64,000 nucleotides of DNA, taken from NCBI GenBank assembly GCA_038919385.1, contig JBCKZH010000002.1, positions 6,868-70,867 on the forward strand, written 5' to 3'. The stretch comes from Vicinamibacterales bacterium. GTDB lineage: Bacteria; Acidobacteriota; Vicinamibacteria; Vicinamibacterales; UBA2999. The notes beneath the pieces are model-generated. The model did not search any database, had not been told where the DNA came from, and saw only the letters and a list, made by a program, of their open reading frames with translations. This document shows, piece after piece, positions 8,105-58,796 of the stretch. A program made the translations under genes and the position numbers. Position 1 is the first letter of the stretch. Each line of letters opens with the position of its first letter.

Positions 8105-8705
8105 GGCACATCAACGCAGGGCCCATTATGACGTGCGACGCCTTGGCGTCAAGATCGGTGAGGCCTTCTCGCTTCGGTCGCGCGAGCGTTCGGCACAGCT
8201 CCGGCCGACCCCATCGCCAAACAATGGACGCGTGGAGTAGGTATGCAGCGCGACCGGTTCGGTTCAGCAGGCGCTCGGCTGGCGATCGTCGTCGCCGTCG
8301 AGCGGCAACGGCGGGGCGCGCGCGGGGCGCATCACCGGCACCTCGTCCGGCAGGCCCAGATGACGCAGGATGCGCAGGATCACGGCCGTCTCTCGAATCA
8401 GCGCCACCAACGTCAGACGGCCTGGGCAGCGCGGACAGGCCAGGACATCAAACCCGAAACTTCGCTGCATCAGGTCCGCCCACCCACGATTGCGTGACCG
8501 CACACTGTCAGGGCCCCTGTCGTCGGCGCACGCCGCCGCCTCGGTCTCCCCCTTCGCTCCACCGGCGACGGACACCGGGGAGACAATGCCTTTCCGCCAT
8601 GCGGCCCGCGGCGCCAACACCCCGTGGTACAGCACCAGATTGATCCGCGGGCGCGGTGTCAGGGCCGCAAGGCGCTCCAACAACTCCACCGGGTCGAACA
8701 CCAAG

Positions 8706-8746
8706 CCGGGGTCCCCGCCGCGCGTTTCCTGCGCGGTGGGGTGGAG
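8706..8746 (+). repeat. 41-nt hairpin mini-element, copy 1 (inside the transposase ORF)
   Basis: CCGGGGTCCCCGCCGCGCGTTTCCTGCGCGGTGGGGTGGAG; adds HPTAQETRGGDPGL between THL and VFDP. Confidence 0.85.
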
Positions 8747-9293
8747 GTGGGTCGTCCCGTCGGTCCACCGCCGGCGCAGTTCCAGCACGGCCTTGCCATC
8801 GGGCGTCAATTGCAGCCGATCCTGTCCGACCGGCGGACGCAGGGCATACCGGCACAACCGTTCCAGGCGGTCGCGAGCGCCAGCCGGTGCGACAATTCCC
8901 GCGTGGAGATCGAACCCATGCTGGCGGGCGTGCCACCGGCCGAGTGGCGGCGGGTCAGGAACGTCGATGGCATCGCCCCATCGGCGCACCGGCACGCCCG
9001 CGCGCACGCCGAGGGCCGCGACGCCCCGCACGGAGGCGGCCGCAAGGCCCGCCAGGGTCGGCGCCTCTTCGGCGTACCGATCCGGCGCGTCGAACCCTTC
9101 GCTGCCATCTGAAACGCTACGCCGGGCCAGTAACTTCTCGATGCGCCGCTCAATGGTGGTGAGCAGCAAGGTGAGGTCGTCTGCGCCCATCGGCTCCACC
9201 GGACAAAATCGCACGACGCCCGCGCCATCGGGGGCGAACACGCCGTCCATCACGAGCGCGTGAATGTGCACGTTCAGATTCAGCGCCGCACCG

Positions 9294-9334
9294 CCGGGGT
9301 CCCCGCTGCGCGGACTGTGCGCAGTGGGGTGGGA
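9294..9334 (+). repeat. 41-nt hairpin mini-element, copy 2 (inside the transposase ORF, at a frameshift site)
   Basis: CCGGGGTCCCCGCTGCGCGGACTGTGCGCAGTGGGGTGGGA; C-to-T and G-to-A changes at paired stem positions. Confidence 0.85.
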
Positions 9335-9506
9335 AGCGCTGGACGATGGCCACGGCACCACCGCGGCCGTCGGCCCCGTCACGGCCACGGGCATGGCGGC
9401 GGAGCCAGCCGAGCACGGCGCGCACGTAGACGGCCACGAGCGCTCGACAGAGCTCGTGATCCCACGCCAGCACGTACCGAATGCGCGGCGGCAGACTCAG
9501 TACCCA

Positions 9507-9547
9507 CTCCACCCCACCGCGCAGAGTCCGCGCGGCGGGGACCCCGG
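9507..9547 (-). repeat. 41-nt hairpin mini-element, copy 3 (opposite orientation, inside the transposase ORF)
   Basis: Reverse complement reads CCGGGGTCCCCGCCGCGCGGACTCTGCGCGGTGGGGTGGAG; adds AGVPAARTLRGGVE between VPVRQ and WVLS. Confidence 0.85.
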
Positions 9548-10123
9548 CCTGCCGGACCGGCACTGCAGGGAAGATGTGATCGACCAGGTGAGCCGCCCGA
9601 TCGGTCATGCGGCGGCCACCGCAACTGGGGCATATCCGCGGCCCTTGCACGAGAACGGGACCAGCCGATCGAGACGGCAGCTGGAGCACCGGAACCTCGC
9701 GAAGCCCGCCGCCAGACAGCCGCACGCCAGGAAGTCGCGAAACTCCTGCTCCACAAAGCGCGGCAAGCCCTGGCCATCGCGCATGCCGGCGGCCTGGACA
9801 CGAAAGGTTTCGAAGTGATCGCGCACCAGTTGATGCAGGGCACCCTGCTCGGGCTGGCGCGGCCGATAGACGGCGGAGGCGGTGGCCACGCCGCCAAGAG
9901 GCGCAAGGGCCGTGCCTGACGAGTCACCCCTGTAGCGTCAACGACTTGCGTGGTGGCCCCGCCCCGGTGATCGCAGCAACTGCGTTCACAGGCATGAGGA
10001 TGCGGCGCAGTATCTGCTACGCCGGCCGCGTTACGTGGCCGGCGCCGGGGTCGGCGACTATCGCTTCGCGAGCATCGTGCAGGGGGCGTGCGCGCACGCA
10101 GCGCACGTTGAGGCGGCACGCCG

Positions 10124-10423
10124 CTACGCTGCGGTCCCCGCCCACGGCTTGATCCTTCGCAAGGCGCTGGCGAGCCCCTTCGCCGCCACCTCGCTGTCGT
10201 AGGCCGCCTGCGCTCGAAGCCAATAGCCGTTTGACAGACGGAAAAACCGGCAGAGCCTCAGATCGGTGTCGGCCGTAATCGCGCGCCTGCCCGATACAAT
10301 CTCGCCGATGCGCTGGGCGGGCACACCAATCTCCTTGGCCACACGGTACTGCGTGAGTTCCATCGGGATCAGGAACTCCTCGATCAGCAGCTCGCCTGGT
10401 GTCACGGGCTTCAGTGGTGCCAT
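10124..10423 (-). CDS. higA: HigA-type XRE-family antitoxin, with no adjacent HigB
   Basis: PGELLIEEFLIPMELTQYRVAKEIGVPAQRIGEIVSGRRAITADTDLRL; only 22 nt separate it from the upstream gene. Confidence 0.8.
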   Translation of the reverse strand: MAPLKPVTPGELLIEEFLIPMELTQYRVAKEIGVPAQRIGEIVSGRRAITADTDLRLCRFFRLSNGYWLRAQAAYDSEVAAKGLASALRRIKPWAGTAA

Positions 10424-10445
10424 GAGCGTTCTCCCCTAGCCTAGG

Positions 10446-10976
10446 CTAACCCTCGACGGCCACTCCGAGGCCATCGGCGATCCGATTTACGAACGCAAAG
10501 TAGCTGACAATCGCACACGCGTCGTGAATGGCGCGGTCCGTGTAGCCGGCGGCGCGCAGCGACGCAATGTGGCTCGCAGTCACGGCCCTCGGGGTCTTGG
10601 TCAGCACGTCGGCGTAGGTCAGCAGTGCCTGTTCGGCGGCGCTGAGGTGGGGCGAGACGACGTCGGATTGTAGGTGGTTGAGCAGTGCGTCCTGATCACC
10701 AGCGGCGATGCCGTCTTTCGTGAGAATGGCACGGAGTCCCGCCCCGTGATGGTGCAGTCAATAGTGGCACTGGTTCAGGGCGGACACCCGGACGCCGAGC
10801 AGCTCGCGCTCGCGGCGGGACAACGGTCCGGCGCGATGCATCAACTGCTTATACAGCTCGTAATGCTGTCGCATCACGGCGGGATGAACAGCGTGAATCT
10901 GGATGATGTTGTCGGGGTCCGCCACCCGATCCTCTGGCGCCAGCATCTCAGGCCGTAGGTACGGAATGAAGGCCAT
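10446..10976 (-). CDS. AhpD/carboxymuconolactone-decarboxylase-family peroxidase-related protein with an in-frame TGA (10758-10760) at the second position of the CxxC motif; Sec candidate or pseudogene
   Basis: Frame reads ...SALNQCHY-TGA-LHHHGAGLRAIL...YFAFVNRIADGLGVAVEG-TAG; 72 codons before and 103 codons after the TGA; TGATG coupling with the upstream peptidase gene. Confidence 0.7.
10730..10748 (-). promoter_or_regulatory. candidate bacterial SECIS-like stem-loop
   Basis: Minus-strand CACGGGG-CGGGA-CUCCGUG: 7-bp stem (one G-U pair), G-rich 5-nt loop, starting 9 nt after the UGA. Confidence 0.4.
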
Positions 10977-11569
10977 CAGTCTCTCCGCGCCGGCGCGCGC
11001 TGGCCGCGCCGCATCAACGCTTCCAGTCCTTCGGGCGATCGGGCCACGTGGCCGGTCAGGTTCTCTCGCCCTTGTGGCGTAATCAAAATCACATCCTCGG
11101 TGAAAACGGCGACCTGGAGGTCGTGGTTGTAATACCAGGGTTCGACGGTGATGACCATGCCGGGCGCCAGCGGCTCGTCATCGAGTGACGGGTCACCGGA
11201 CGACAGCCCAAGGTGGTGGCCGAAGAATAGTCCGGTTTGCATGTATGCGCGCGCCGCCTCGGGAACGGCGCTCAACCCAGCACGCTGCGCCTCCCGCAGG
11301 GTCACGCCCGGCCTCAGGGCAGCGATCAGGGCGTCGGACACCCCGACCTCCATCGTGAGAATGGCACGTTGCTCCGGCGTGAACCTGCCAGAGACCGGAA
11401 ATGTCCGGCCAGTGTCGCTGACGTAGCCGTCGAGTTCGCATCCCACGTCGAAGATCACCAGCTCGCCGTTCTTCATGTGCCGATTGCGGCGATCGTAGTG
11501 GGTCGCCAGAATGCGCCACGGCCACAGCGAGTTGGGACCCGACTTGATGATCGACGCAAACGCCCACCG
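10976..11569 (-). pseudogene. M24-family Xaa-Pro aminopeptidase, 5'-truncated (catalytic C-terminal domain only)
   Basis: Homology AFASIIKSGPNS...GELVIFDVGCELDGYVSDTGRTFPV...; an in-frame stop at 11570-11572 leaves no N-terminal domain. Confidence 0.75.
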
Positions 11570-11683
11570 TCAGATCCTAACCTGTCAGGCGTGGACATGG
11601 TGCGGCGCAGCCTCGAAGCCGACGACGAACCTTCACAGGCCGCCGTGGCGCTCTTGGTCGAGTCTGAAAAACGAGCAGCGTAA

Positions 11684-12619
11684 CTATCTATCCATGAGGG
11701 GAATCTGCTTCGGTGGCTGGATTTGTTCGATCACTTTACGAACGACACGACGGTTGCTGATTTGGCCGGATTCACTGATGAAGGATTCGACGAATAGCAT
11801 GACTTTCAAGAGATCGCCCTTGGCGAAGGATCGTTCTCGCCGCTGAACTTCACCGAAGAACTCTTCGTCCTCGATGTCAGCGTAGAAGTTTCTATCGCCA
11901 TCAGAAAACGTCCACGTCAGACGCTCGTCGAATGACGGCTTGACAATCTGGATGACAGTCTCAAACTCGCCACCGGTTACGCGAGTTTCCTGAGGCTCTG
12001 TGACACTAAAGGCTGGCAGCTCGGCCTTTGTTACCCGTTCAATCACCGCACCACCAATTGATTCCTTTGTTTCGAATGATTCGATTCCTTGCCGTTCCAC
12101 GGGGGCTACGATTTCCTTGGCCGCATTTCGAACAGCTTGATCGTTGTACAGCTTCGCCACTTCTGGCGAAACTTCGATGTATTCGACCTCGATCTTATGG
12201 GTCACGGTTAGGTCGATCACGACCTCGATCCGAACATTGCCATCTTGGAGAGTCGTTACAGACTTCGGCTTCCGCCCCTTGAGCCACTTGATAAGGCCAA
12301 GGACTGATACGCCAGCCCCGCTAGCGAAGCCAAGAAGCGCGAGCAGGTTGATGGCGGCAGTAACGTTGTCCGACAGCAGAAGGGTCTTGGCCTGCTGGAT
12401 GACCGTGTGGACCAACTCCAGGTCAATACCAAACGAACCAGGCTTGAAGCCAGTTCGAACATTGACTTGAACTGTCGCCTTGTTCCCGTTTAAGACCTTA
12501 TTCGCTCGGTCACAAAGCGTTCCGACTGCCATCAGGGCAGGCGCTAGATAGCGCACGTCCATCGTACCCTGTTCGAGCGCAGGTCCGTCGTATGCGATAG
12601 TCGCGTGGGCTTGGCTCAC
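11684..12619 (-). CDS. orphan 311-aa hypothetical protein on a low-GC islet, with one predicted central TM helix
   Basis: GTG start; visibly AT-richer codon usage than its neighbours; hydrophobic AAINLLALLGFASGAGVSVLGLIKWL; upstream TTGACC-17nt-TTTAAC. Confidence 0.6.
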   Translation of the reverse strand: MSQAHATIAYDGPALEQGTMDVRYLAPALMAVGTLCDRANKVLNGNKATVQVNVRTGFKPGSFGIDLELVHTVIQQAKTLLLSDNVTAAINLLALLGFASGAGVSVLGLIKWLKGRKPKSVTTLQDGNVRIEVVIDLTVTHKIEVEYIEVSPEVAKLYNDQAVRNAAKEIVAPVERQGIESFETKESIGGAVIERVTKAELPAFSVTEPQETRVTGGEFETVIQIVKPSFDERLTWTFSDGDRNFYADIEDEEFFGEVQRRERSFAKGDLLKVMLFVESFISESGQISNRRVVRKVIEQIQPPKQIPLMDR

Positions 12620-12746
12620 TGCGCTAGATTAGTACATTTACCAACGTCGAGCAACAAGGTTAAACGTATTCGTGACAGGTGGGTCAATTTTAACAGAAAT
12701 TCGAAGGAGCCCACTACCCGACCGTCGGCCAGGCCGACCGTCACCG

Positions 12747-13226
12747 CTAGGCGCCAAACTGTCGCAGGTGGTGATCGAGGTGCCGCCATTGCAGGGCCTG
12801 CCATTCCGCGGTCGAGAGAGGGCCGAAGAACGGATGGGGCTGCGTCGTAAGGCCCGTCGGGCCGACGGTACCGAAGCGCTGCACCAGCATTCGCAGCGCG
12901 GCCTTTTCCTGCTCGAAGTTGCGGGCGTCGGTGATTCGGAACTCCGGCGCGGTGGGCATGCTGTGCTTCCACGGGGCGGCCCTCAGCAGCCGCCGCTTCG
13001 CCATCCTGCCGAACAGGAAACCAATCAGACTGCGCTTGAGTGGCAGTTCACCGAGCGCGACTCGCAGCGGCTGCTGGCAGTGCGCGAGCATTTGTGCGAC
13101 CGACATCTTGCCCCACTGGCGCGGGGACTCTGGTTGCAGACGGTCCAGGCGCGCCAGCATGGCGTCGAGGCCCTGCGGATCGAACAGTGAGTCAGCCATG
13201 CCTGAAGGTTGACAGCCGCCAGCCAC
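12747..13226 (-). CDS. DinB-superfamily protein (DUF1569-like); the start may be the second Met at 13199
   Basis: WGKMSVAQMLAHC...HPFFGPLSTAEWQALQWRHLDHHLRQFG. Confidence 0.75.
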   Translation of the reverse strand: MAGGCQPSGMADSLFDPQGLDAMLARLDRLQPESPRQWGKMSVAQMLAHCQQPLRVALGELPLKRSLIGFLFGRMAKRRLLRAAPWKHSMPTAPEFRITDARNFEQEKAALRMLVQRFGTVGPTGLTTQPHPFFGPLSTAEWQALQWRHLDHHLRQFGA

Positions 13227-21640: not shown

Positions 21641-22056
21641 TGGCCGGCCTGGTGTTCCAGCCGGCCGTCGACGCGGCCATTCGCGCGCATGGCCGGGAGA
21701 CCTTTCCGCACGAATGCTGTGGCGCCCTCTTGGGCCGCGACGGCGTCGTGCACGAAGCGCACGGGTTGGCAAACACCACCGATCAAGGCCCGCGCCGGCG
21801 CTTTCTGGTGAGGCCCGACGATTACCGCGGCGCCGAGACACGGGCCCGCGAGACCGGGCTCGACCTGCTCGGCTTTTACCACTCACACCCCGACCACCCG
21901 GCGCGGCCCTCGCAGTACGACCTCGACCACGCGTGGCCGTCGTTCTCGTACGTGATCGTATCGGTCATGGCGGGCGAAGACAAACTGCTCACGTCGTGGC
22001 GGCTCAAGGAAGACCGCTCGGCTTTTGACGAAGAACCTGTAGGGATAACCGAATGA
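21640..22056 (+). CDS. mec: JAMM/MPN+ metalloprotease (Mec type)
   Basis: HECCGALLG and HSHPDHPARPSQYD JAMM motifs; TGATG coupling with cysM. Confidence 0.85.
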   Translation: MAGLVFQPAVDAAIRAHGRETFPHECCGALLGRDGVVHEAHGLANTTDQGPRRRFLVRPDDYRGAETRARETGLDLLGFYHSHPDHPARPSQYDLDHAWPSFSYVIVSVMAGEDKLLTSWRLKEDRSAFDEEPVGITE

Positions 22057-23501
22057 TCAAGATTCTGATTCCGACGCCGCTGCGCCCGTTCACGGACAAG
22101 CTCGAGACCGTGGAAGTGGCAGGCGCAACGGTCGGCGAGTTGCTGCAGAACCTCACCACCAAGTACGCAGGCCTGAAGCAGCACCTCTACGCGGCCGACG
22201 GCAAGCTGCGCAGCTTCGTCAACGTGTATGTCAACGATGACGACATCCGCTACTTACAGAAGGGCCAGACGCCGGTGAAGGCCGGGGACACCGTGAGCAT
22301 CATCCCGTCGGTCGCGGGCGGCAGTCCCGCGACAGTCGAGGCCCTGCCGGAATTGTCGGGCGATGAAATCAAGCGCTACAGCCGTCACCTGATCATGCCC
22401 GAGGTGGGCGTCGAGGGTCAGCGCAAGCTGAAAGCGGCCAAGGTGTTGTGCATCGGCGCCGGCGGCCTCGGCTCGCCCGCGGCCATGTACCTTGCCGCCG
22501 CCGGTGTCGGCACGATCGGCATCGTCGATTTCGACGTGGTGGACTTCAGCAACCTGCAGCGCCAGTTGCTTCACGGCACGCCTGATGTCGGCCGTCCGAA
22601 GCTCGATTCAGCGAGGGATCGGCTGAATGCGCTCAACCCCAATGTGCAGATCGAGACCTACGACACCGCGCTCAGTTCCGAGAATGCGATGAGGCTGTTG
22701 GCGCCATACGACGTGATTCTCGACGGCACCGATAATTTCCCGACGCGATACCTGGTGAACGACGCCTGTGTGCTGAGCGGCAAGCCCAATGCCTACGGCA
22801 GCATCTTCCGGTTCGAGGGGCAGGCGTCGGTGTTCGCGACCAAGGATGGTCCGTGCTACCGCTGCCTCTATCCCGAGCCACCGCCGCCAGGCCTGGTGCC
22901 CAGCTGCGCCGAAGGCGGGGTGTTCGGCGTGCTCCCTGGCATCATCGGCGTGATTCAGGCGACCGAGACGATCAAGTTGATTCTCGGCATCGGCGAGCCG
23001 CTGATTGGCCGCTTCATGATCTACGACGCGCTACGCATGCGCTTCCGCGAGTTGAAGCTGCGCAAGGATGCCGACTGCCCGGTGTGCGGCACGCACCCGA
23101 CGGTCACCAAGCTGATCGACTATGAGCAGTTCTGCGGCGTGGCGCCGCACCAGGTCGAGGCCGCCAAGGCGCCGGTGACGGTCGCCGACGCGCTCACGTC
23201 CCGCGAACTGAAGACGGAACTCGACCGCGGCGACCAGCTCGTGATCCTCGACGTGCGGGAGCCCCAGGAGTACCAGATCAACAAGATTCCCGGCTCGGTT
23301 CTGATTCCACTCGGGGACCTGCCCAAGCGCTACGTCGAGCTGGACCCGAACGCCGCGATTGTGTCGCAATGCAAGTCGGGGATGCGCAGCGCGAAGGCAC
23401 AGGAGTTCCTGCGCTCGAAAGGGTTTACGAACGTTCGGAACCTCACCGGCGGCATTCTCGGCTGGATTGATCAGGTCGATTCAAGCCAGCCCAAGTACTA
23501 A
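22053..23501 (+). CDS. fusion protein: CysO-like ubiquitin-fold sulfur carrier ending in GG, joined to a MoeZ-type E1-like adenylyltransferase and a rhodanese domain
   Basis: Residues 1-90 resemble CysO (IPTPLRPFT...FVNVYVNDDDIRY...SIIPSVAGG); then SP-ATVEALPELSGDEIKRYSRHL...GAGGLGSP...CxxC pairs; C-terminal rhodanese (CKSGMRS). Confidence 0.85.
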   Translation: MIKILIPTPLRPFTDKLETVEVAGATVGELLQNLTTKYAGLKQHLYAADGKLRSFVNVYVNDDDIRYLQKGQTPVKAGDTVSIIPSVAGGSPATVEALPELSGDEIKRYSRHLIMPEVGVEGQRKLKAAKVLCIGAGGLGSPAAMYLAAAGVGTIGIVDFDVVDFSNLQRQLLHGTPDVGRPKLDSARDRLNALNPNVQIETYDTALSSENAMRLLAPYDVILDGTDNFPTRYLVNDACVLSGKPNAYGSIFRFEGQASVFATKDGPCYRCLYPEPPPPGLVPSCAEGGVFGVLPGIIGVIQATETIKLILGIGEPLIGRFMIYDALRMRFRELKLRKDADCPVCGTHPTVTKLIDYEQFCGVAPHQVEAAKAPVTVADALTSRELKTELDRGDQLVILDVREPQEYQINKIPGSVLIPLGDLPKRYVELDPNAAIVSQCKSGMRSAKAQEFLRSKGFTNVRNLTGGILGWIDQVDSSQPKY

Positions 23502-23576
23502 CCAGGCCGCGCGTCAGGTGATCGAGGACGCGGGCGATGGTCGGGGATGGCCCTGAGCCGGCACTATAGTGTAGCC

Positions 23577-24794
23577 ATGTCTCCCACACGCCGTGACGTG
23601 CTGACCGCCGCCATCGCCCTGTCGATTGCACCCCTCCAAGCCGGCGCCGGTTCTCAGGGCGCGGCCACACCGCCGCCCTCGCCGGCGCCGCCGCCGGTCG
23701 GCTTCGACCCGTGGCTCGAAGTCAACGCCGCGAATCTGGCGCACAACGTGAGCGAAGTGGCGCGCGTCGCGAAGGGCCAGCCGATTCTGGCCGTCGTCAA
23801 GAACAACGGCTACGGCTTAGGCGTCACGACCGTGGCCCGGCTGCTCGAGCCGATGCCGGTCGTCGACGGCTTCGCGGTGGTGAAGCTGCACGAGGCGCAC
23901 GCGCTGCGTGACGCCGGCATTCGCAAGCCCATCCTGCTGATGGGGCCGCTACAGGAGAGCGAGCTCGCCGACGTCCACAAGCGCGGGATCACGCCGATGG
24001 TCTACACGCCGGTCGGTGCGTCGCTCGAGCGAGCCGCGGCCGCGAACGGCAGACCCTGTCCCATCCACATCAAGATCGACACGGGCATGGGACGCGTGGG
24101 CGTCCCCTACACGCAGGCGGAACCGCTGATCCGCGACCTGGCGAGTCGTAAGGGCGTGCGCATCGACGGCGTAATGATGGGTTTTACCGAGGACTTCGAG
24201 TTCGACCGCGAGCAACTGCGCCGCTTCGAGGCGCTCACCGGAAAACTCAGGGCCGACGGCGTCCCGATCGGCCGCCGCCACGCCGCATCGAGCTACACCT
24301 TCTTCCAGCATCCCGACGTCCGGCTCGACATGGTGCGACCGGGGCTGGCGCTCTGGGGTGTCTATCCCGAGCAGGCCTTCCGCTCGCAGGGAACACTCGA
24401 CCTGAGGCCAGCGATGGCGCTTCGTGCCCGGGTGGCGTACGTCAAGAAGCTCGAGGCGGGGTCGAGCGCCGGCTATAACCGGGCCTTCATGGCTACCACG
24501 CCCACCTGAGTGGCGACTGTGCCGGTGGGCCACGCCGACGGCTGGCCCCGCGAGGCCGCCAAGGGCGCGACGGTGAAGATCCGAGGACGCGCCTTCCCGG
24601 TGGTCGCCTCGATCTCGGCCAGCCACACGATCGTGAACCTCGGCCCGGAGACGTCGGTCCAGGCCGGCGACATCGCGACGTGCTTCGACTGGGAGACCGG
24701 GTCACGTCCCGAGGACGTGGCGGCCGCCTGCGGCGCGTCGGTCTACGACCTCACGATGCACCTCGGTGGACACCTGACAAAACGAGTGGTCTAG
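23577..24794 (+). pseudogene. Tat-signal alanine-racemase-family protein interrupted by an in-frame TGA at 24507-24509
   Basis: MSPTRRDVLTAAIALS twin-Arg signal; AVVKNNGYGLG PLP-Lys motif; ...ATTPT-TGA-VATVPVGHADGWP; the paralog has Arg at the stop position. Confidence 0.8.
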
Positions 24795-31983: not shown

Positions 31984-33207
31984 CTACACCAGCCGCCGCG
32001 GCAGCAGCGCGCTCATCTTCGTGATGAGCGGCAGGAAGCCCACGCCGGTGCGCGACGCAACCTCGACAGGCAGGATCGCCGGGTTTTCGGGGCCGACGAG
32101 CGTGGCCGTGTCGCCCAACTTGACCGGCGCGTCGAGGCCGACATCCACCAGCGTGTGCGCCGAGGCCACGCCGCCTGACACCACCGGGAACAGCCGGTCG
32201 CCAATCAGCACCTCGCACTTGCCGCCGGCTGTAGAGGGGTATCCATCCGTGTGCCCGACCGGCAGCAGTGCCACCCGCGTGGGCTGCGTGACCATGAAGC
32301 CGCGCCGGAATCCAGCGCTCTCGCCGGGTTCCACCCGTTCAAGCCGCGCCACGCGCGCGCGCAGGCGGAACACGGGCTTCAGGTCCACCGATTGCGTCAC
32401 GTCCGTGCCGGGAAACGCGCCGAACAGCGCGTTGCCGACCCGCACCATGTCGAAGTGCGACTCGGGCAGGCGATAGAGTTCGTAGGTCGGCGCCGCGTGG
32501 ACGATGCCGGGCTTGAACCCCTGTGCGGCGGCGTCGGCTAGGACCCCCTTGAAGCGATCCAACTGCACGCGGTCGTAGTCCATGGTGTGGACGAACAGCT
32601 GATAAGTGCCCTCGATCCGCACGTTCGGCCGCTTGGCGACCTCCAGCATCCAGGGCACCGCTCGGCGCACCGGCATGCCCTCGCGGTTCATCCCGGTGTC
32701 GAGGAACAGGTGCACCGGCGCGGGTCGGCGCGCCTTCGCGGCGATGCGCTCCAGTCGCTCCGGCGCGTCGTCCAACCAGCACGACAGCGTAACGCCGTTA
32801 CGGACGAGCTCCACCGATTCGCTCTCGCCTAGTTCGGCCATCGTGAGCAGCGTCTTCTTGACCCCGGCGGCGCGCATGGCCAGCGCCTCGGCCGGCCGCA
32901 CGCACGCGATGCCCGCGACCTCCGCGCACCGATCGAGCAAGGGCCCGATGATGGCGTCGCCCAGACCGTAGGCGTTGTTCTTGACGACGGCGATGATCGG
33001 TCGCCCGCCGGCGAGGCGCGACACCTCTCTCGCGTTGTGACGGAAATGGTCGCCGATGATCTCGATCCACGGGTCGAAGCCGTGGTCGTCGCCGCCGGCG
33101 CGCAGGCGGGTGGTGGCGCTCTGTGAGACCGCCGCCCCAGGCTCCACAACGGTCGCCGCGATCGCCGCCGCCGCCGTGCCGAGAAACGATCGTCTGTCGA
33201 TGCTCAT
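31984..33207 (-). CDS. Tat-signal alanine-racemase-family protein (intact paralog)
   Basis: [19 protein letters not shown]; [12 protein letters not shown]; [16 protein letters not shown]. Confidence 0.85.
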
Positions 33208-33261
33208 GCTGGTCCTCGCGAAGTCTGGTATGGGCAGCCTAGGTTCGCGGGCGCCGTCGGC

Positions 33262-33708
33262 GTGCTCACCCGCCGGGAAATCGAAGCCCGTATGCTGGCC
33301 CCCATTATCGACGCCCTCGGCCACGAATTCGGCCGCGCGCGGGTGGTCGAGATTGTATCCGACGTCATCGTCGCCATCGCTCGCGATCGGGGCCGCGCCA
33401 TGGCGGAGGCGCAGGGCGGCCGCTCGCTCGCCGTATTCGCCGGCACCCTCGAACCCTGGACCCGAGACGACGCCATGCGCATCGAGGTGCTCGATCAGAC
33501 CGATGACCGCCTGTCGTTTGACGTGACCCGGTGCCGCTACGCCGAGATGTACCGGGCCCTCGGCATTCCCGAGCTTGGCGCCGTCTTGTCCTGCAACCGC
33601 GATGCCGCGCTGATCGAGGGCTTTAATCCCGACATCACACTGACGCGAACGGACACGATCATGCAGGGCGCCGACCACTGCAACTTCCGGTATCGCGCCA
33701 AGCCCTGA
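33262..33708 (+). CDS. L-2-amino-thiazoline-4-carboxylic-acid (ATC) hydrolase-family protein
   Basis: GTG start; [38 protein letters not shown]...HCNFRY. Confidence 0.7.
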
Positions 33709-55278: not shown

Positions 55279-55962
55279 TCAAGTGGCCGTCACGGCCGCG
55301 GGTTCGTGATGCAGGTCGGCGAAGACGAATCCATCACGGTCGACGATCTCGCCCAGGCGGACAGCGATCGCGTGGTTGAACATGGGGCCGGTGTGCGCGA
55401 ACGAGTGGAACTCTCCGTTCTCCCCGCACGGATCCACGCCGGCTGGCAGATCGGCGATGAAGGACCGATCGAAGGTGCGGCCGGCGAATGCGCGATCGAG
55501 TTTCTGAGGATTCACGCAGGTCAGGGTGGCGCGCAGTCCGCCAGCCATCATGTCCTGCGCGAGAGCGGCCGTGGACTTGGTCTTCCAGATCGGAAACAGC
55601 GGCTCGAGGCCGGAACCGGCGAGCCGTTCCTCGCGATAGCGGCGGACGTCTTCGAGAAACAGGTCGCCGAACGCGACGTGGGTAAAGCCGCCGGTCACGA
55701 AGCCTGCCACCGCCGTCTGCATGATCGCTTCGTAGTGCGCGTTCGAACACGGCCACGGCAGGGGCACCACGTGCAGAGGCAGGGCGGCGGCGTCGGCTTG
55801 GGCCTGGAGGAGTTCGCGTCGTACGGCATGCGTCGCCACCCGGTCGAAGGCTTCGTTGGTGGTGGTGAGCAACCCCGCAACCGCGCCAGGGTGTTGCTGC
55901 CTGAGCGTGTGGAGCATCCAGGCCGAGTCCTTGCCGGTCGACCAACTGACCAGGATCTTCAT
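55279..55962 (-). CDS. DUF71/COG2102 (Dph6-related, MJ0570-like) PP-loop ATP pyrophosphatase
   Basis: SWSTGKDS PP-loop; GDLFLEDVRRYRE; CGENGEFHSF; ATGA overlap with btuF. Confidence 0.8.
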   Translation of the reverse strand: MKILVSWSTGKDSAWMLHTLRQQHPGAVAGLLTTTNEAFDRVATHAVRRELLQAQADAAALPLHVVPLPWPCSNAHYEAIMQTAVAGFVTGGFTHVAFGDLFLEDVRRYREERLAGSGLEPLFPIWKTKSTAALAQDMMAGGLRATLTCVNPQKLDRAFAGRTFDRSFIADLPAGVDPCGENGEFHSFAHTGPMFNHAIAVRLGEIVDRDGFVFADLHHEPAAVTAT

Positions 55963-56855
55963 GGGTGCAGCGCCTTCGCCATTCGCTCCACGCTCTCGGC
56001 GATGCGCGGGCCGGGCACCGTGACCGCGTGACCAGAAATAAACAGAACCTGTTGGTTGCGCACGGCCGGCACCGACGCCAAGCGCGCCCACGAGGCCAGC
56101 TCTTGCTGCATGGGCAGGCCGGCGGGGATCTCCTCCGGTCGCAACTCCAGAATCACTTCAGGCGCCCGCGACAGGATGGTTTCGATCGAGACCTGCACCG
56201 ACTCCTTGTCGATGTCGTTGAACACATCATCGCCACCCGCGATCTCAAGCATGTCGTGCAGGAAGCCGCGTCCGCCGCTGACGTACAGGTTCCGCAGGGT
56301 CTTGGGCTCGCGCGAGAACACGAGCAGCGTCTTCGGCCGTCGCTTACCGGCGACCCGAGCGCGCACGGCGGCGAGCCTGGCCTCGATCGCCGCGACGGCC
56401 CGATCGGCCTCTGTCGCATGACCCGTGCGCACGCCCAGCTCGGTCATGGTCGCCAGGATGTGGCTCAAGCCGGCGTGACGGTAGTCAAAGGTCGGAATGC
56501 CGGCGCGCTTCATTTGGGCCTGCAGGTCGACCTGGCTGCCATAGGTCATCACCAGGTCTGGCTTGAGCGAGATGATCCGCTCGGTGTCGGGATCGAGCAG
56601 CGCCCCCACGCGCGGTAGCGCCTTCACCTCGGGCGGATACTCGTCGTAGCTCGACACCGCGACGACTTGCGGACCCGCACCAATCGCGTAGAGCATCTCG
56701 GTCAACGCAGGCACCAATGACACGATTCGTTGCGGGCGCGACTGCGCCGCTGGCGCGAAAGAGGCCAGCAACACGAGGCAAGCCCCAAGCCGCAAGCCGC
56801 AAGTCGCGAACCGCCCACCGCAAGCCGCAAGCCGCAAGCCGCAAGCCGATTTCAT
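55959..56855 (-). CDS. btuF: periplasmic cobalamin/iron-siderophore binding protein (BtuF-like)
   Basis: RIVSLVPALTEMLYAIG...KPDLVMTY; the n-region of its signal peptide is encoded by heptamer repeats. Confidence 0.8.
   Translation of the reverse strand: MKSACGLRLAACGGRFATCGLRLGACLVLLASFAPAAQSRPQRIVSLVPALTEMLYAIGAGPQVVAVSSYDEYPPEVKALPRVGALLDPDTERIISLKPDLVMTYGSQVDLQAQMKRAGIPTFDYRHAGLSHILATMTELGVRTGHATEADRAVAAIEARLAAVRARVAGKRRPKTLLVFSREPKTLRNLYVSGGRGFLHDMLEIAGGDDVFNDIDKESVQVSIETILSRAPEVILELRPEEIPAGLPMQQELASWARLASVPAVRNQQVLFISGHAVTVPGPRIAESVERMAKALHP
56779..56848 (+). repeat. longest CAAGCCG heptamer-family array, lying inside the 5' coding end of btuF (minus strand)
   Basis: caagccccaagccgcaagccgcaagtcgcgaaccgcccaccgcaagccgcaagccgcaagccgcaagccg. 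Confidence 0.85.
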
Positions 56856-57853
56856 GATTTCTTCACCAGCAACCAGAGAAAGAACGGCCCGCCGATCAAG
56901 GCCGTGATGATGCCAACCGGCAACTCGAGTGGCGCCACGATCGTGCGTGCCGTCAGGTCACAGAGCACGGTGAACGCCGCGCCGAAGAGGGCCGCGGCCG
57001 GCAACACGATCCGATGATCCGACCCCACCATCAACCGTACGAGGTGGGGCACGACAATGCCGATGAAGCCGATGGGACCGCCCAGCGAGACCGCGGCGCC
57101 AGTGGCCAATGAGGTGCTGAGAAAAGCGAGTCGTTGCGTGCGGACCACCTCCACGCCACGGGCGGCCGCGACGTCCTCGCCGAGCGTCAGCAGGTTCAGC
57201 GTGCGCGGCAGACAGGCAAACACGCCGAAGGCCGCGACGACGAACGGCAGCGCGGCGATGATCGGGGTGTAGCTGCCGACATCCAGGTCGCCCATGAGCC
57301 AGCGAAGCGCCCGCAACGACTGGGTGAAGTCCGCCATGTATTGCACGAACAGGATCAGCGCCGAGAAGAACGAGTTAAGCGTGACTCCGGCCAGCAGCAA
57401 GACGTTGGTCGACAGGCCGCGTTTCCGCGACGAGGCCAGCCAGTAGACGATGGCGGTGGCGACGAGCGAGCCGGTGAAGCTGGCGATGGGAACTGACGAG
57501 ACGCCCATCATCCCGACCTCGAGTCCGAACGCGATCGCCAGCATCGCGCCCAGCGCGCCGCCCGCCGAGACGCCCAACGTGAACGGCGTTGCCAATGGAT
57601 TGCGCAGCATGGCCTGCAACACCACGCCCGCGGCCGCGAGCGAGGCGCCGACGATGGCGCCTGACAGCACGCGTGGCAGACGGGCGACGAAGAAGATCTG
57701 CGCGTCGACGTTCTCGTGCCAGGGGATGGTCGTGTCGAACACCCTCGGCAGCGAGATGCTCGTGCTGCCGACCGTGGGCGCCCACAGCACGACGGCGATC
57801 GTTGCGAGCGCAAACAGCGAGACGACCGTGAAGATGCGACGGCGGATGTTCAC
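56852..57853 (-). CDS. btuC: FecCD-family ABC permease (BtuC-like)
   Basis: Polytopic; ...TALIGGPFFLWLL C-terminal motif. Confidence 0.9.
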   Translation of the reverse strand: MNIRRRIFTVVSLFALATIAVVLWAPTVGSTSISLPRVFDTTIPWHENVDAQIFFVARLPRVLSGAIVGASLAAAGVVLQAMLRNPLATPFTLGVSAGGALGAMLAIAFGLEVGMMGVSSVPIASFTGSLVATAIVYWLASSRKRGLSTNVLLLAGVTLNSFFSALILFVQYMADFTQSLRALRWLMGDLDVGSYTPIIAALPFVVAAFGVFACLPRTLNLLTLGEDVAAARGVEVVRTQRLAFLSTSLATGAAVSLGGPIGFIGIVVPHLVRLMVGSDHRIVLPAAALFGAAFTVLCDLTARTIVAPLELPVGIITALIGGPFFLWLLVKKS

Positions 57854-58689
57854 CGTGCCACTCGTCGAACGGGAACCACCGTCATGTGGCCGGTGCCGCT
57901 ATGCACATGCACATCGGCCTCGACGTCGTACAGCCGCTGCACGTTCTCCGGCGTCAGCACCTCATGGGTCGGCCCCGTCGCCAGCACCCGGCCATCGCGC
58001 ATCAGGATCAGTTCGCGGCAGATCGAGGCGGCGAGGTTCAGGTCGTGCGTCGAGATGGCCATGGTGACGCCGTGGTCCTGGTTGAGCCGTTGCAAGAGCG
58101 ACGACACCTCGAGTTGGTAGCCCAGGTCGAGCGACGCCGTCGGCTCGTCGAGCAAGAGCAGGCCCGCCGATTGCGCGAGCGCGGCGGCAATCACCACGCG
58201 CTGCTTCTCGCCGCCGCTCAGTTCGTGAAACGGGCGATCGGCGAGTGGCGCCGTGCCAGTGGCCGTCAGCGCCTCGCGCGCGATCCGGATGTCATCCGGC
58301 CCTTCCACGGTGAACACACCGAGGTGCGGATGGCGGCCCATCAGCACGATCTCGATCGCCGAGTACTCGAACACCAGCTCGGTCTCTTGTGGTACCACGG
58401 CGATGCGTCGCGCGACCTCGCGTCGCGACCAGCGGTCCAGTGGTTGGCCGTCGAGCAACACCCGTCCGGACGAAGGCTTGCGCGTGCCGCTCAGCAAGCG
58501 CAGCAGTGTGGTCTTACCTGAGCCGTTCGGGCCGAGAATGCCGACGAGTGCGCCGTCAGTGAGGCGCACGGACACACCGTCAACGACGAGGGGGCCGTCG
58601 GGGGCGTAGCGGAACGAGAGTTGGTCGGCGGAAAGCACTGCGCGTCGCCTCCCAGGCGTCTCACGCGCCTGAATGAGTGACTTGCCCAT
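57850..58689 (-). CDS. btuD: ABC transporter ATPase (BtuD/FhuC-like)
   Basis: GPNGSGKTTLL Walker A; LSGGEKQR; LLLDEPT. Confidence 0.9.
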   Translation of the reverse strand: MGKSLIQARETPGRRRAVLSADQLSFRYAPDGPLVVDGVSVRLTDGALVGILGPNGSGKTTLLRLLSGTRKPSSGRVLLDGQPLDRWSRREVARRIAVVPQETELVFEYSAIEIVLMGRHPHLGVFTVEGPDDIRIAREALTATGTAPLADRPFHELSGGEKQRVVIAAALAQSAGLLLLDEPTASLDLGYQLEVSSLLQRLNQDHGVTMAISTHDLNLAASICRELILMRDGRVLATGPTHEVLTPENVQRLYDVEADVHVHSGTGHMTVVPVRRVAR

Positions 58690-58692
58690 GAA

Positions 58693-58796
58693 CTGCCAGT
58701 CTCCTGACTCGCGGCGCGGGGCCGCTTACAGTGGCGGGACCGTGTGGGCTTCGCACCCAACTTCCCTGGCTGTCCTGGTACGCGTCTGTTGAGCCC
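58693..58796 (-). promoter_or_regulatory. cobalamin riboswitch
   Basis: Minus-strand AGGGAAGUUGGGUGCGAAGCCCACACGGUCCCGCCACUGUAAGCGG...GAGUCAGGAGACUGGC; the GCCACUG B12 box and the GGGAA/GGUG/CCCGC core; the 3' part overlaps the AGGAG RBS of btuD. Confidence 0.8.

Follow-up and report, generated by a model that had tools for sequence, protein, structure and literature searches.

An AhpD-like gene of the TIGR01926 family with a conserved in-frame TGA, probably a selenocysteine codon, in a Vicinamibacterales genome

Introduction

Does a TGA codon that stands where a redox cysteine is expected mark a broken gene, or does it specify selenocysteine (Sec)? The question is raised by an AhpD-like gene on the minus strand of a 64,000-nt stretch of DNA (the window) from contig JBCKZH010000002.1 of a Vicinamibacterales bacterium (GCA_038919385.1). 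In the list of open reading frames (ORFs) of the window, this gene is shown only as two pieces, one of 72 aa (10758-10976) and an internal one of 53 aa, and in the public assembly carrying it only a 72-aa fragment is called, without selenoprotein annotation. A preliminary description of the window proposed a selenoprotein gene split by ORF calling and named a simple TGC/TGT-to-TGA nonsense mutation as the alternative. We conclude that the locus is very probably a single intact gene encoding a thiol/selenol oxidoreductase of the AhpD-like type (TIGR01926, carboxymuconolactone-decarboxylase fold), with UGA codon 73 recoded as Sec. We show that the gene is intact, that its TGA and a downstream hairpin are conserved, that purifying selection acts on both halves and that the family cut-off is passed; the actual insertion of Sec in this organism, and the substrate and reductant of the enzyme, we infer.

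AhpD-like proteins with a CxxU motif (COG2128) were described in 2005, with 27 sequences, as a new and abundant selenoprotein family in the Sargasso Sea metagenome (PMC1088965). In the Global Ocean Sampling (GOS) study, 'AhpD-like 1' was among the most abundant families, again with CxxU, and comprised 299 Sec vs. 902 Cys forms (PMC2398784), and a 2026 review enters 'AhpD-like protein, TIGR01926, CxxU' as a selenoprotein family (PMC13188914). The earlier statement that AhpD-like proteins are an established bacterial selenoprotein family is in keeping with this literature (PMC1088965; PMC13188914). Acidobacteria have also been reported to include selenoprotein-bearing genomes (PMC1794560).

Results

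The frame of the AhpD-like gene reads MAFIPY...SALNQCHY-TGA-LHHHGAGLR...GVAVEG-TAG, with 72 sense codons, the TGA as codon 73 and 103 further sense codons, and the TGA at 10758-10760 is its sole internal stop. Translation reproduced exactly the coordinates and the description given earlier for the continuation of the frame past the TGA to the TAG at 10446. The gene and its landmarks are the following:

10446-10976, minus strand: complete AhpD-like gene (TIGR01926, peroxidase-related, probable selenoprotein), 176 codons including the putative Sec73
10974-10976, minus strand: ATG start, overlapped by one base (TGATG) by the TGA of an M24 peptidase remnant upstream
10803-10805, minus strand: Glu58 codon, 12 residues before Cys70, at the proton-relay Glu position of AhpD proteins
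10758-10760, minus strand: in-frame TGA, inferred Sec73 codon, second position of the C70-H-Y-U73 redox motif
10730-10748, minus strand: candidate bacterial Sec insertion sequence (bSECIS) hairpin, CACGGGG/CGGGA/CUCCGUG, coding for H77-G-A-G-L-R82
10446-10448, minus strand: TAG stop codon

A GGAG at 10983-10986 lies 6 nt 5′ of the ATG, and orthologues mostly begin with M-A-F/Y-I at the same position, 72 codons ahead of the TGA. That the TGA occupies the place of the second redox Cys of a CxxC motif, as had been proposed, is borne out by two solved structures, 6K40 (CVYC) and 3C1L (CYYC), which place a Cys in that column; the column also matches the TGC of a rare Cys form of the gene (locus L163).

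Profile scans, for which Sec was typed as Cys, matched the protein to Pfam CMD (PF02627; E = 3.9e-17) and to NCBIfam TIGR01926, 'peroxidase-related enzyme', with 109.7 bits vs. the curated cut-off of 81.8 (residues 23-173, model positions 31-174 of 178). The AhpD core domain TIGR00778 was also passed (45.6 bits vs. 27.8). Two other assignments were tried and rejected, namely canonical AhpD (TIGR00777, 'AhpD family'; 18.3 bits vs. a cut-off of 191.95) and NF041238 (AhpD_rel_CFYUT; 63.1 bits vs. a cut-off of 175), of which only the C-terminal half of the model was matched, by residues 34-175. Judged by these scores, the window protein is AhpD-like and is not an AhpD orthologue. The solved homologues 6K40, 3C1L, 2OYO, 2PRR, and 2PFX align over residues ~20-172 (E = 6e-21 to 2e-14) with their CxxC on C-H-Y-TGA, and the closest of them is DR1765 (6K40; E = 6e-21).

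The preliminary description had asked whether orthologues carry Cys or Sec in the column of codon 73. A genomic scan with one genome per species gave 294 relatives, from which the best 80 loci were kept; these span Acidobacteriota/Vicinamibacterales, Gemmatimonadota, Chloroflexota, Planctomycetota, Desulfobacterales, SAR324, the Olavius Delta-1 symbiont and others. Every one of the 80 has TGA at this codon, with no case of TAA, TAG or a sense codon; no other internal stop is present, and 102-122 sense codons come after the TGA. A metagenome scan seeded with the sole true Cys form (P0012) yielded 75 readable relatives, every one of them with TGA. Together with one TGC and one TCA form, which were obtained separately by protein look-up, the sequences read amount to 155 TGA, 1 TGC, and 1 TCA (n = 157). 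The reading of TGA here is site-specific and not a change of the genetic code, because TGA is otherwise an ordinary terminator in these organisms: it ends 42 of 80 AhpD-like gene copies (79 orthologues and the window copy) and 30 of the 61 rough gene calls of the window.

The sequence following the TGA shows every sign of use. The window copy agrees with the other sequences at 51/51 of the columns in which these are conserved to 95% or more, and frameshifts or stops downstream of the TGA, which the preliminary description had named as what would speak against a selenoprotein, were sought in close relatives and none were found. The ratio of non-synonymous to synonymous substitution rates (dN/dS) was 0.04-0.14 upstream of the TGA (vs. 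eight orthologues; a ninth comparison was saturated) and 0.21-0.32 downstream (vs. nine orthologues), where synonymous sites are ~50-60% different. By this measure, purifying selection acts on the gene upstream and downstream of the TGA alike. Two further assemblies (GCA_038919655.1 and GCA_038919595.1) carry the gene with 100% identity, on contigs that match the window at 99.7-99.9%.

In the protein databases, most homologues are fragments of ~104 aa that start with (M/V)HHHGAGLR, and others are ~100-130 aa long and end in ...C[H/N/Q]Y, so that the fragments of this family break exactly at the TGA site. Such fragments are the usual signature of an unrecognized selenoprotein. A few 'full-length' entries (P0001-P0003) show W at the Sec site. 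The DNA behind P0001 (L165, 124-663) has TGA, and the stored protein is not reproduced under translation table 11, so its W is an artefact of translation with a table in which TGA encodes Trp.

The second element of the gene is the hairpin that the mRNA can form after the UGA. It was found as first described, 9 nt after the UGA and with a G-rich loop ~16 nt from it, within the range of bSECIS elements, and its parts are:

10748-10742, minus strand: 5′ arm, CACGGGG
10741-10737, minus strand: loop, CGGGA
10736-10730, minus strand: 3′ arm, CUCCGUG

In the family consensus the hairpin starts 10 nt after the UGA, and the 9 nt of the window copy are owed to a seventh pair, C-G, which 18/80 sequences have. 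The consensus model of bSECISearch (PMC13188914, Fig. 2) allows a loop of 3-9 nt and an upper stem of 4-16 bp; it further has a G at one or other of the first two loop positions, mostly with G or U next to it, 16-37 nt between UGA and loop, and a free energy of at most -7.5 kcal/mol (PMC13188914). The window hairpin agrees with this model on all four counts. Its loop of 5 nt and stem of 7 bp (6 bp conserved in the family) lie within the limits, its spacing of exactly 16 nt (10757-10742) equals the lower bound, and its -9.5 kcal/mol is below the energy limit, for which the 6-bp form of the family consensus, at -7.3, is borderline. In a set of 81 sequences the loop reads C-G-G-G-N, with C at position 1 in 79/81 and G at positions 2-4 in 80, 80, and 81 of 81, respectively. 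A search of Rfam gave no SECIS-type family, either for the window at the gathering threshold or for 10600-10850 at E ≤ 10, and returned chance-level small RNA matches only.

Among 80 distinct sequences, the six core pairs (A-U, C-G, G-C, G-C, R-U, G-C) are formed in ~97% of cells (~465/480, summed from per-pair counts). The full 7-pair helix is paired in 86.8% of cells, vs. 24-50% with the 3′ partner displaced by 1-3 columns. Since the stem sits in an invariant peptide, synonymous sites were used as the test of the hairpin. The relative synonymous-codon entropy at conserved amino-acid columns elsewhere in the gene, which served as the control, was 0.53-0.99; the codons of the hairpin gave the following:

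H77: CAC in 80/80, relative entropy 0.00
G78: GGA or GGG only, relative entropy 0.42
A79: GCG in 77/78, relative entropy 0.05
G80: ends in the last (3′) base of the loop, free, relative entropy 0.86
L81: CTC in 77/80, relative entropy 0.09
R82: CGT in 72/80, relative entropy 0.24

At other conserved Arg columns, CGT is used in just 4-9 of ~80 sequences. By these codon counts, the synonymous sites of the hairpin are nearly frozen across species. Where the peptide differs, the stem is rebuilt: L112 and L126 have CGGCGC/GCGCCG, L097 has UGCGGAG/CUCCGCA (with the same motif in L098 and L103), and L018 has CGCGCGG/CCGCGCG. In the rebuilt or register-shifted stems that were folded, the loop stays at an unchanged distance from the UGA. 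In 127 of 138 unique sequences, the minimum free energy (MFE) structure of the 34 nt after the UGA contains a hairpin of 4 bp or more whose loop lies 19-22 nt from the U of the UGA.

Cys homologues free of the hairpin were sought as a control with the P0012-seeded metagenome scan; all 75 relatives proved to carry TGA, and the Cys form retains the hairpin. The two relatives without TGA are L163 (3001-3546), which has TGC (Cys) and comes from a metagenome-assembled genome of Planctomycetota, and L164 (1896-2432), which has TCA (Ser) and comes from a single Logan contig. Both keep an ACGGAG...CUCCGU hairpin and, from their sequences, look like recent conversions that carry a fossil SECIS. The neighbors of the L163 gene are a Se_S_carrier gene (PF11823), a class-V aminotransferase of the cysteine desulfurase/selenocysteine lyase type, and a pyridine-nucleotide disulfide oxidoreductase.

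Five relay positions, E58, C70, Y72, U73, and H77, are invariant in 80/80 sequences. The corresponding residues of two characterized proteins are:

Window gene: E58, C70, Y72, U73, H77
Mycobacterium tuberculosis AhpD (MtAhpD): E118, C130, H132, C133, H137 (PMC3141380)
Pseudomonas aeruginosa PA0269: E36, C48, Y50, C51, H55 (PMC3141380)

As aligned, the predicted relay of the window protein has the same spacing as those of MtAhpD and PA0269, namely Glu(-12), Cys, x, His/Tyr, Cys/Sec, xxx, His.

The immediate surroundings of the gene differ from those of its orthologues, and include the following features:

10997-11569, minus strand: M24 (Xaa-Pro-type) peptidase remnant, 5′-truncated, matching residues 321-511 of the 511-aa orthologue at L010 by tblastn
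11684-12619, minus strand: unrelated 311-aa ORF preceding the M24 remnant, where the lost part of the peptidase gene would lie, on the same strand as the AhpD-like gene, with lower GC content at third codon positions and no Pfam match
10124-10423, minus strand: HigA-like helix-turn-helix gene (Pfam HTH_3), 22 nt downstream of the AhpD-like gene, with no adjacent HigB
8264-9889, minus strand: pieces of an IS91-family transposase, downstream of the AhpD-like gene (Y2_Tnp, 376 aa, and a Zn_Tnp_IS91 fragment, 94 aa)

In six or seven close Acidobacteriota relatives, the AhpD-like gene is preceded by a full-length M24 gene (~440-511 aa). The M24 gene is directly adjacent in L010, L013, L016, and L017, where it is intact, and in L009, where the match falls into two segments; in L004 it lies further upstream. 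M24 adjacency is confined to these few close relatives. When neighbor genes were clustered over the 80 loci, no partner proved to be shared across phyla, and antisense ORFs of the AhpD-like gene itself made up the largest cluster. Of the fetched loci, L001 alone, a near-identical contig, has the 311-aa ORF (L002 stops short of the region), and insertion of this ORF may have destroyed the M24 gene. The HigA-like gene occurs in the near-identical contigs L001 and L002 but in none of the orthologous loci; from this distribution, it is lineage-specific and outside the selenoprotein unit. Together, the transposase pieces and the HigA-like gene are a mobile-element border specific to this lineage. 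A scan for promoters and terminators over 9900-12900 was uninformative. The earlier characterization of the window as decay-rich holds for this neighborhood, with its M24 remnant and nearby IS91-type transposase, but not for the AhpD-like gene, which is itself undecayed.

Discussion

In the current study, we characterized an AhpD-like gene that is split in annotation by an in-frame TGA. In the mechanism that we propose, the hairpin with its G-rich CGGGN loop would act as a bacterial SECIS and recruit SelB and Sec-tRNA(Sec) to the ribosome, and translation would then proceed through the 103 further codons. Sec73 would substitute for the second Cys of the AhpD relay, E58...C70-x-Y72-U73-x-x-x-H77. 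It could attack peroxide or an oxidized partner such as a peroxiredoxin, whereupon Cys70 would resolve the intermediate into a selenenylsulfide and a cellular reductant would re-reduce the enzyme. The second CxxC position was reportedly identified as the nucleophile in M. tuberculosis AhpD by Koshkin et al. in 2003. A knockout of DR1765 is reported to be H2O2-sensitive and to need both CxxC cysteines for full complementation (PMC8945050), and PA0269 has weak H2O2-reducing activity (PMC3141380). From the shared relay spacing, the H2O2 protection by DR1765 and the activity of PA0269 it follows, by analogy, that the most likely function is that of a selenol/thiol peroxidase or of a reductase of an oxidized peroxiredoxin-type partner, with Sec73 attacking and Cys70 resolving.

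Several points weigh against the proposal that this gene encodes a functional selenoprotein. Neither the 64-kb window nor any of 82 loci contained a tRNA-Sec recognized by ARAGORN, and the window and the flanks fetched from relatives yielded no selA, selB, or selD. Searches by tblastn of the window and all loci, with approximate queries for E. coli SelA, SelB, and SelD, gave two weak matches to the N-terminal (GTPase) region of SelB only, and Pfam scans of 25 ORFs of the window revealed no sel genes. As a single sequence, the hairpin is also unremarkable. The 45-nt segment has an MFE of -10.3 kcal/mol (z = -0.13), with 90/200 shuffles folding as well or better, and the named hairpin (-9.5 kcal/mol) is not its MFE structure, since ViennaRNA favors a neighboring register in the window copy. 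That alternative register was rejected as less conserved, with its outer pairs kept in 25 and 14 of 80 sequences. In this one GC-rich sequence the hairpin has no more than chance stability; the comparative data alone give it significance. In those data, two-sided covariation in the canonical register is sparse and amounts to one pair in two sequences (G-C to A-U in L068 and L071), in a stem that lies within a highly conserved peptide. Of the comparative checks suggested by the preliminary description, each one run nevertheless favored selenocysteine; for the hairpin, synonymous-site conservation and a few compensatory or register-shifted variants speak for it. Furthermore, the M24 operon partner is truncated in the window, presumably along with the promoter, so that expression of this AhpD-like copy is not assured, and the enzymatic role of the Sec-containing members of this clade is a prediction from their homologues. 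Regarding the decoding genes not found here, Sec genes are usually unlinked to selenoprotein genes, and their absence from 64 kb therefore means little.

One could argue that the gene is intact but that its full-length protein is no longer made, either because Sec decoding was recently lost or because the promoter was removed with the M24 truncation, in which case the gene would be a very young relic. The M24 peptidase cut down to residues 321-511, the lineage-specific HigA-like gene and IS91/Y2 transposase at the border of the locus, and the lack of Sec machinery in the sequence searched (the 64-kb window and the fetched flanks) would fit such a history. Nevertheless, we consider it unlikely, given that all 51 conserved columns are matched, that a perfect 7-bp hairpin is retained, that downstream dN/dS is 0.21-0.32 relative to sequences ~50-60% different at synonymous sites, and that the arrangement is identical in three assemblies. 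In addition, the same-strand gene at 11684-12619, directly upstream, could supply transcription, and the usual lack of linkage of Sec genes leaves their absence from 64 kb with little weight. 

Two explanations that dispense with Sec altogether fare worse. Reading of the UGA as a standard amino acid (Trp, Gly, or Cys), by readthrough or reassignment, would account for the W at the site in entries P0001-P0003; yet in P0001, the one checked, this residue is a translation artefact over a TGA, and true stops in these genomes are most often TGA. A redox Cys position combined with a SECIS-like hairpin fits Sec, and we regard a standard amino acid as very improbable. Still less credible, to the point of being negligible, is the original alternative of an ordinary nonsense mutation of a Cys codon that left a pseudogene. 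The window does contain decayed genes, such as the M24 remnant and an alanine-racemase-like gene with an in-frame TGA, but the TGA of the AhpD-like gene recurs in all 155 relatives of the two motif scans, beside one TGC and one TCA, secondary stops and frameshifts are missing, and the hairpin is conserved at synonymous sites. Universal TGA, selection downstream of it and the conserved hairpin effectively exclude such a mutation.

With recoding as Sec as the preferred explanation, the gene can be placed among known systems. It is like the AhpD-like CxxU family (COG2128/TIGR01926) in passing the profile, in having Sec predicted at the second CxxU position and in carrying a SECIS-type hairpin just downstream within the ORF. 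There is no difference in kind from that family; the window copy comes from a soil-type Acidobacteriota lineage and not from marine plankton, and its sub-clade is almost exclusively Sec. One orthologous locus (L076) is that of the Olavius Delta-1 symbiont, in whose genome AhpD-like selenoproteins are said to have been reported. DR1765 and its structural relatives (3C1L, 2OYO, 2PRR, 2PFX) are homologous over residues 23-172 and share the position of the redox motif and the H after xxx, but they are Cys-Cys rather than Cys-Sec and lack the recoding element. MtAhpD and PA0269 share the relay spacing and the TIGR00778 core domain passed by the window protein, which in contrast falls far below the TIGR00777 cut-off and has no AhpC partner gene adjacent to it. 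Chain topology varies between AhpD sub-families. The NF041238 family, 'hypothetical protein 1' of the Sargasso Sea study, also combines the CMD fold with C-x-Y-U, but its members have ~357 residues with an extra N-terminal region, and the window gene is not one of them.

The window gene is therefore an unannotated member of a known selenoprotein family, whose CxxU motif and SECIS type were described twenty years ago. What is mildly new is that its sub-clade is almost exclusively Sec, that the candidate SECIS is embedded in an invariant active-site peptide, and that the gene is present in public data mostly as split or mistranslated fragments. Since the candidate SECIS is made of the codons of the invariant catalytic segment H-G-A-G-L-R, RNA element and active-site helix would constrain each other. 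We see about an even chance that this branch of TIGR01926 is an essentially obligate-Sec sub-family, centered on Vicinamibacteria and Gemmatimonadota and found also in Chloroflexota, Planctomycetota and others. In that case, widespread soil phyla would depend on selenium for a defense against peroxide that current annotation largely misses, since it breaks the gene in two or puts Trp at the Sec site. The databases hold hundreds of half-genes or Trp versions, and recognition of the gene restores a complete redox enzyme. With this gene, the uncultured Acidobacteriota lineage of the window, related to Vicinamibacterales, is a probable selenium user.

Other features of the window

A scan of the window for other coding segments joined by TGA gave no second selenoprotein candidate and flagged an alanine/serine-racemase-like gene (23547-24794, plus strand), which has an in-frame TGA at 24507-24509 inside its Ala_racemase_C domain. 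Once the stop is bridged, two domains are recognized, the N-terminal one at residues 59-274 and the C-terminal one at 289-411. At the TGA site, ...MATTPT-TGA-VATVPVGHADGW, two PDB homologues show L or R, and there is no Cys or redox motif nearby. From this context, and unlike that of the AhpD-like gene, the TGA has the look of a simple nonsense mutation or an error in sequencing. A second racemase gene, apparently intact, lies at 31984-33678. One window accordingly offers a contrast between a TGA that is a probable recoding site (AhpD-like), a TGA without a redox-type motif (racemase-like) and a gene that is simply truncated (M24).

MoeB is listed elsewhere as a selenoprotein family, and the window has a ThiS-ThiF-rhodanese fusion (MoeB/MoeZ-like, 482 aa) at 22053-23501 on the plus strand, without an in-frame TGA. 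A cobalamin riboswitch (RF00174, 46.4 bits) that has no connection with the AhpD-like gene is found at 58699-58765 on the minus strand, upstream of a run of minus-strand genes that includes a FecCD-type transporter permease (56852-57853) and the adjacent ORFs 57850-58689 and 55959-56855.

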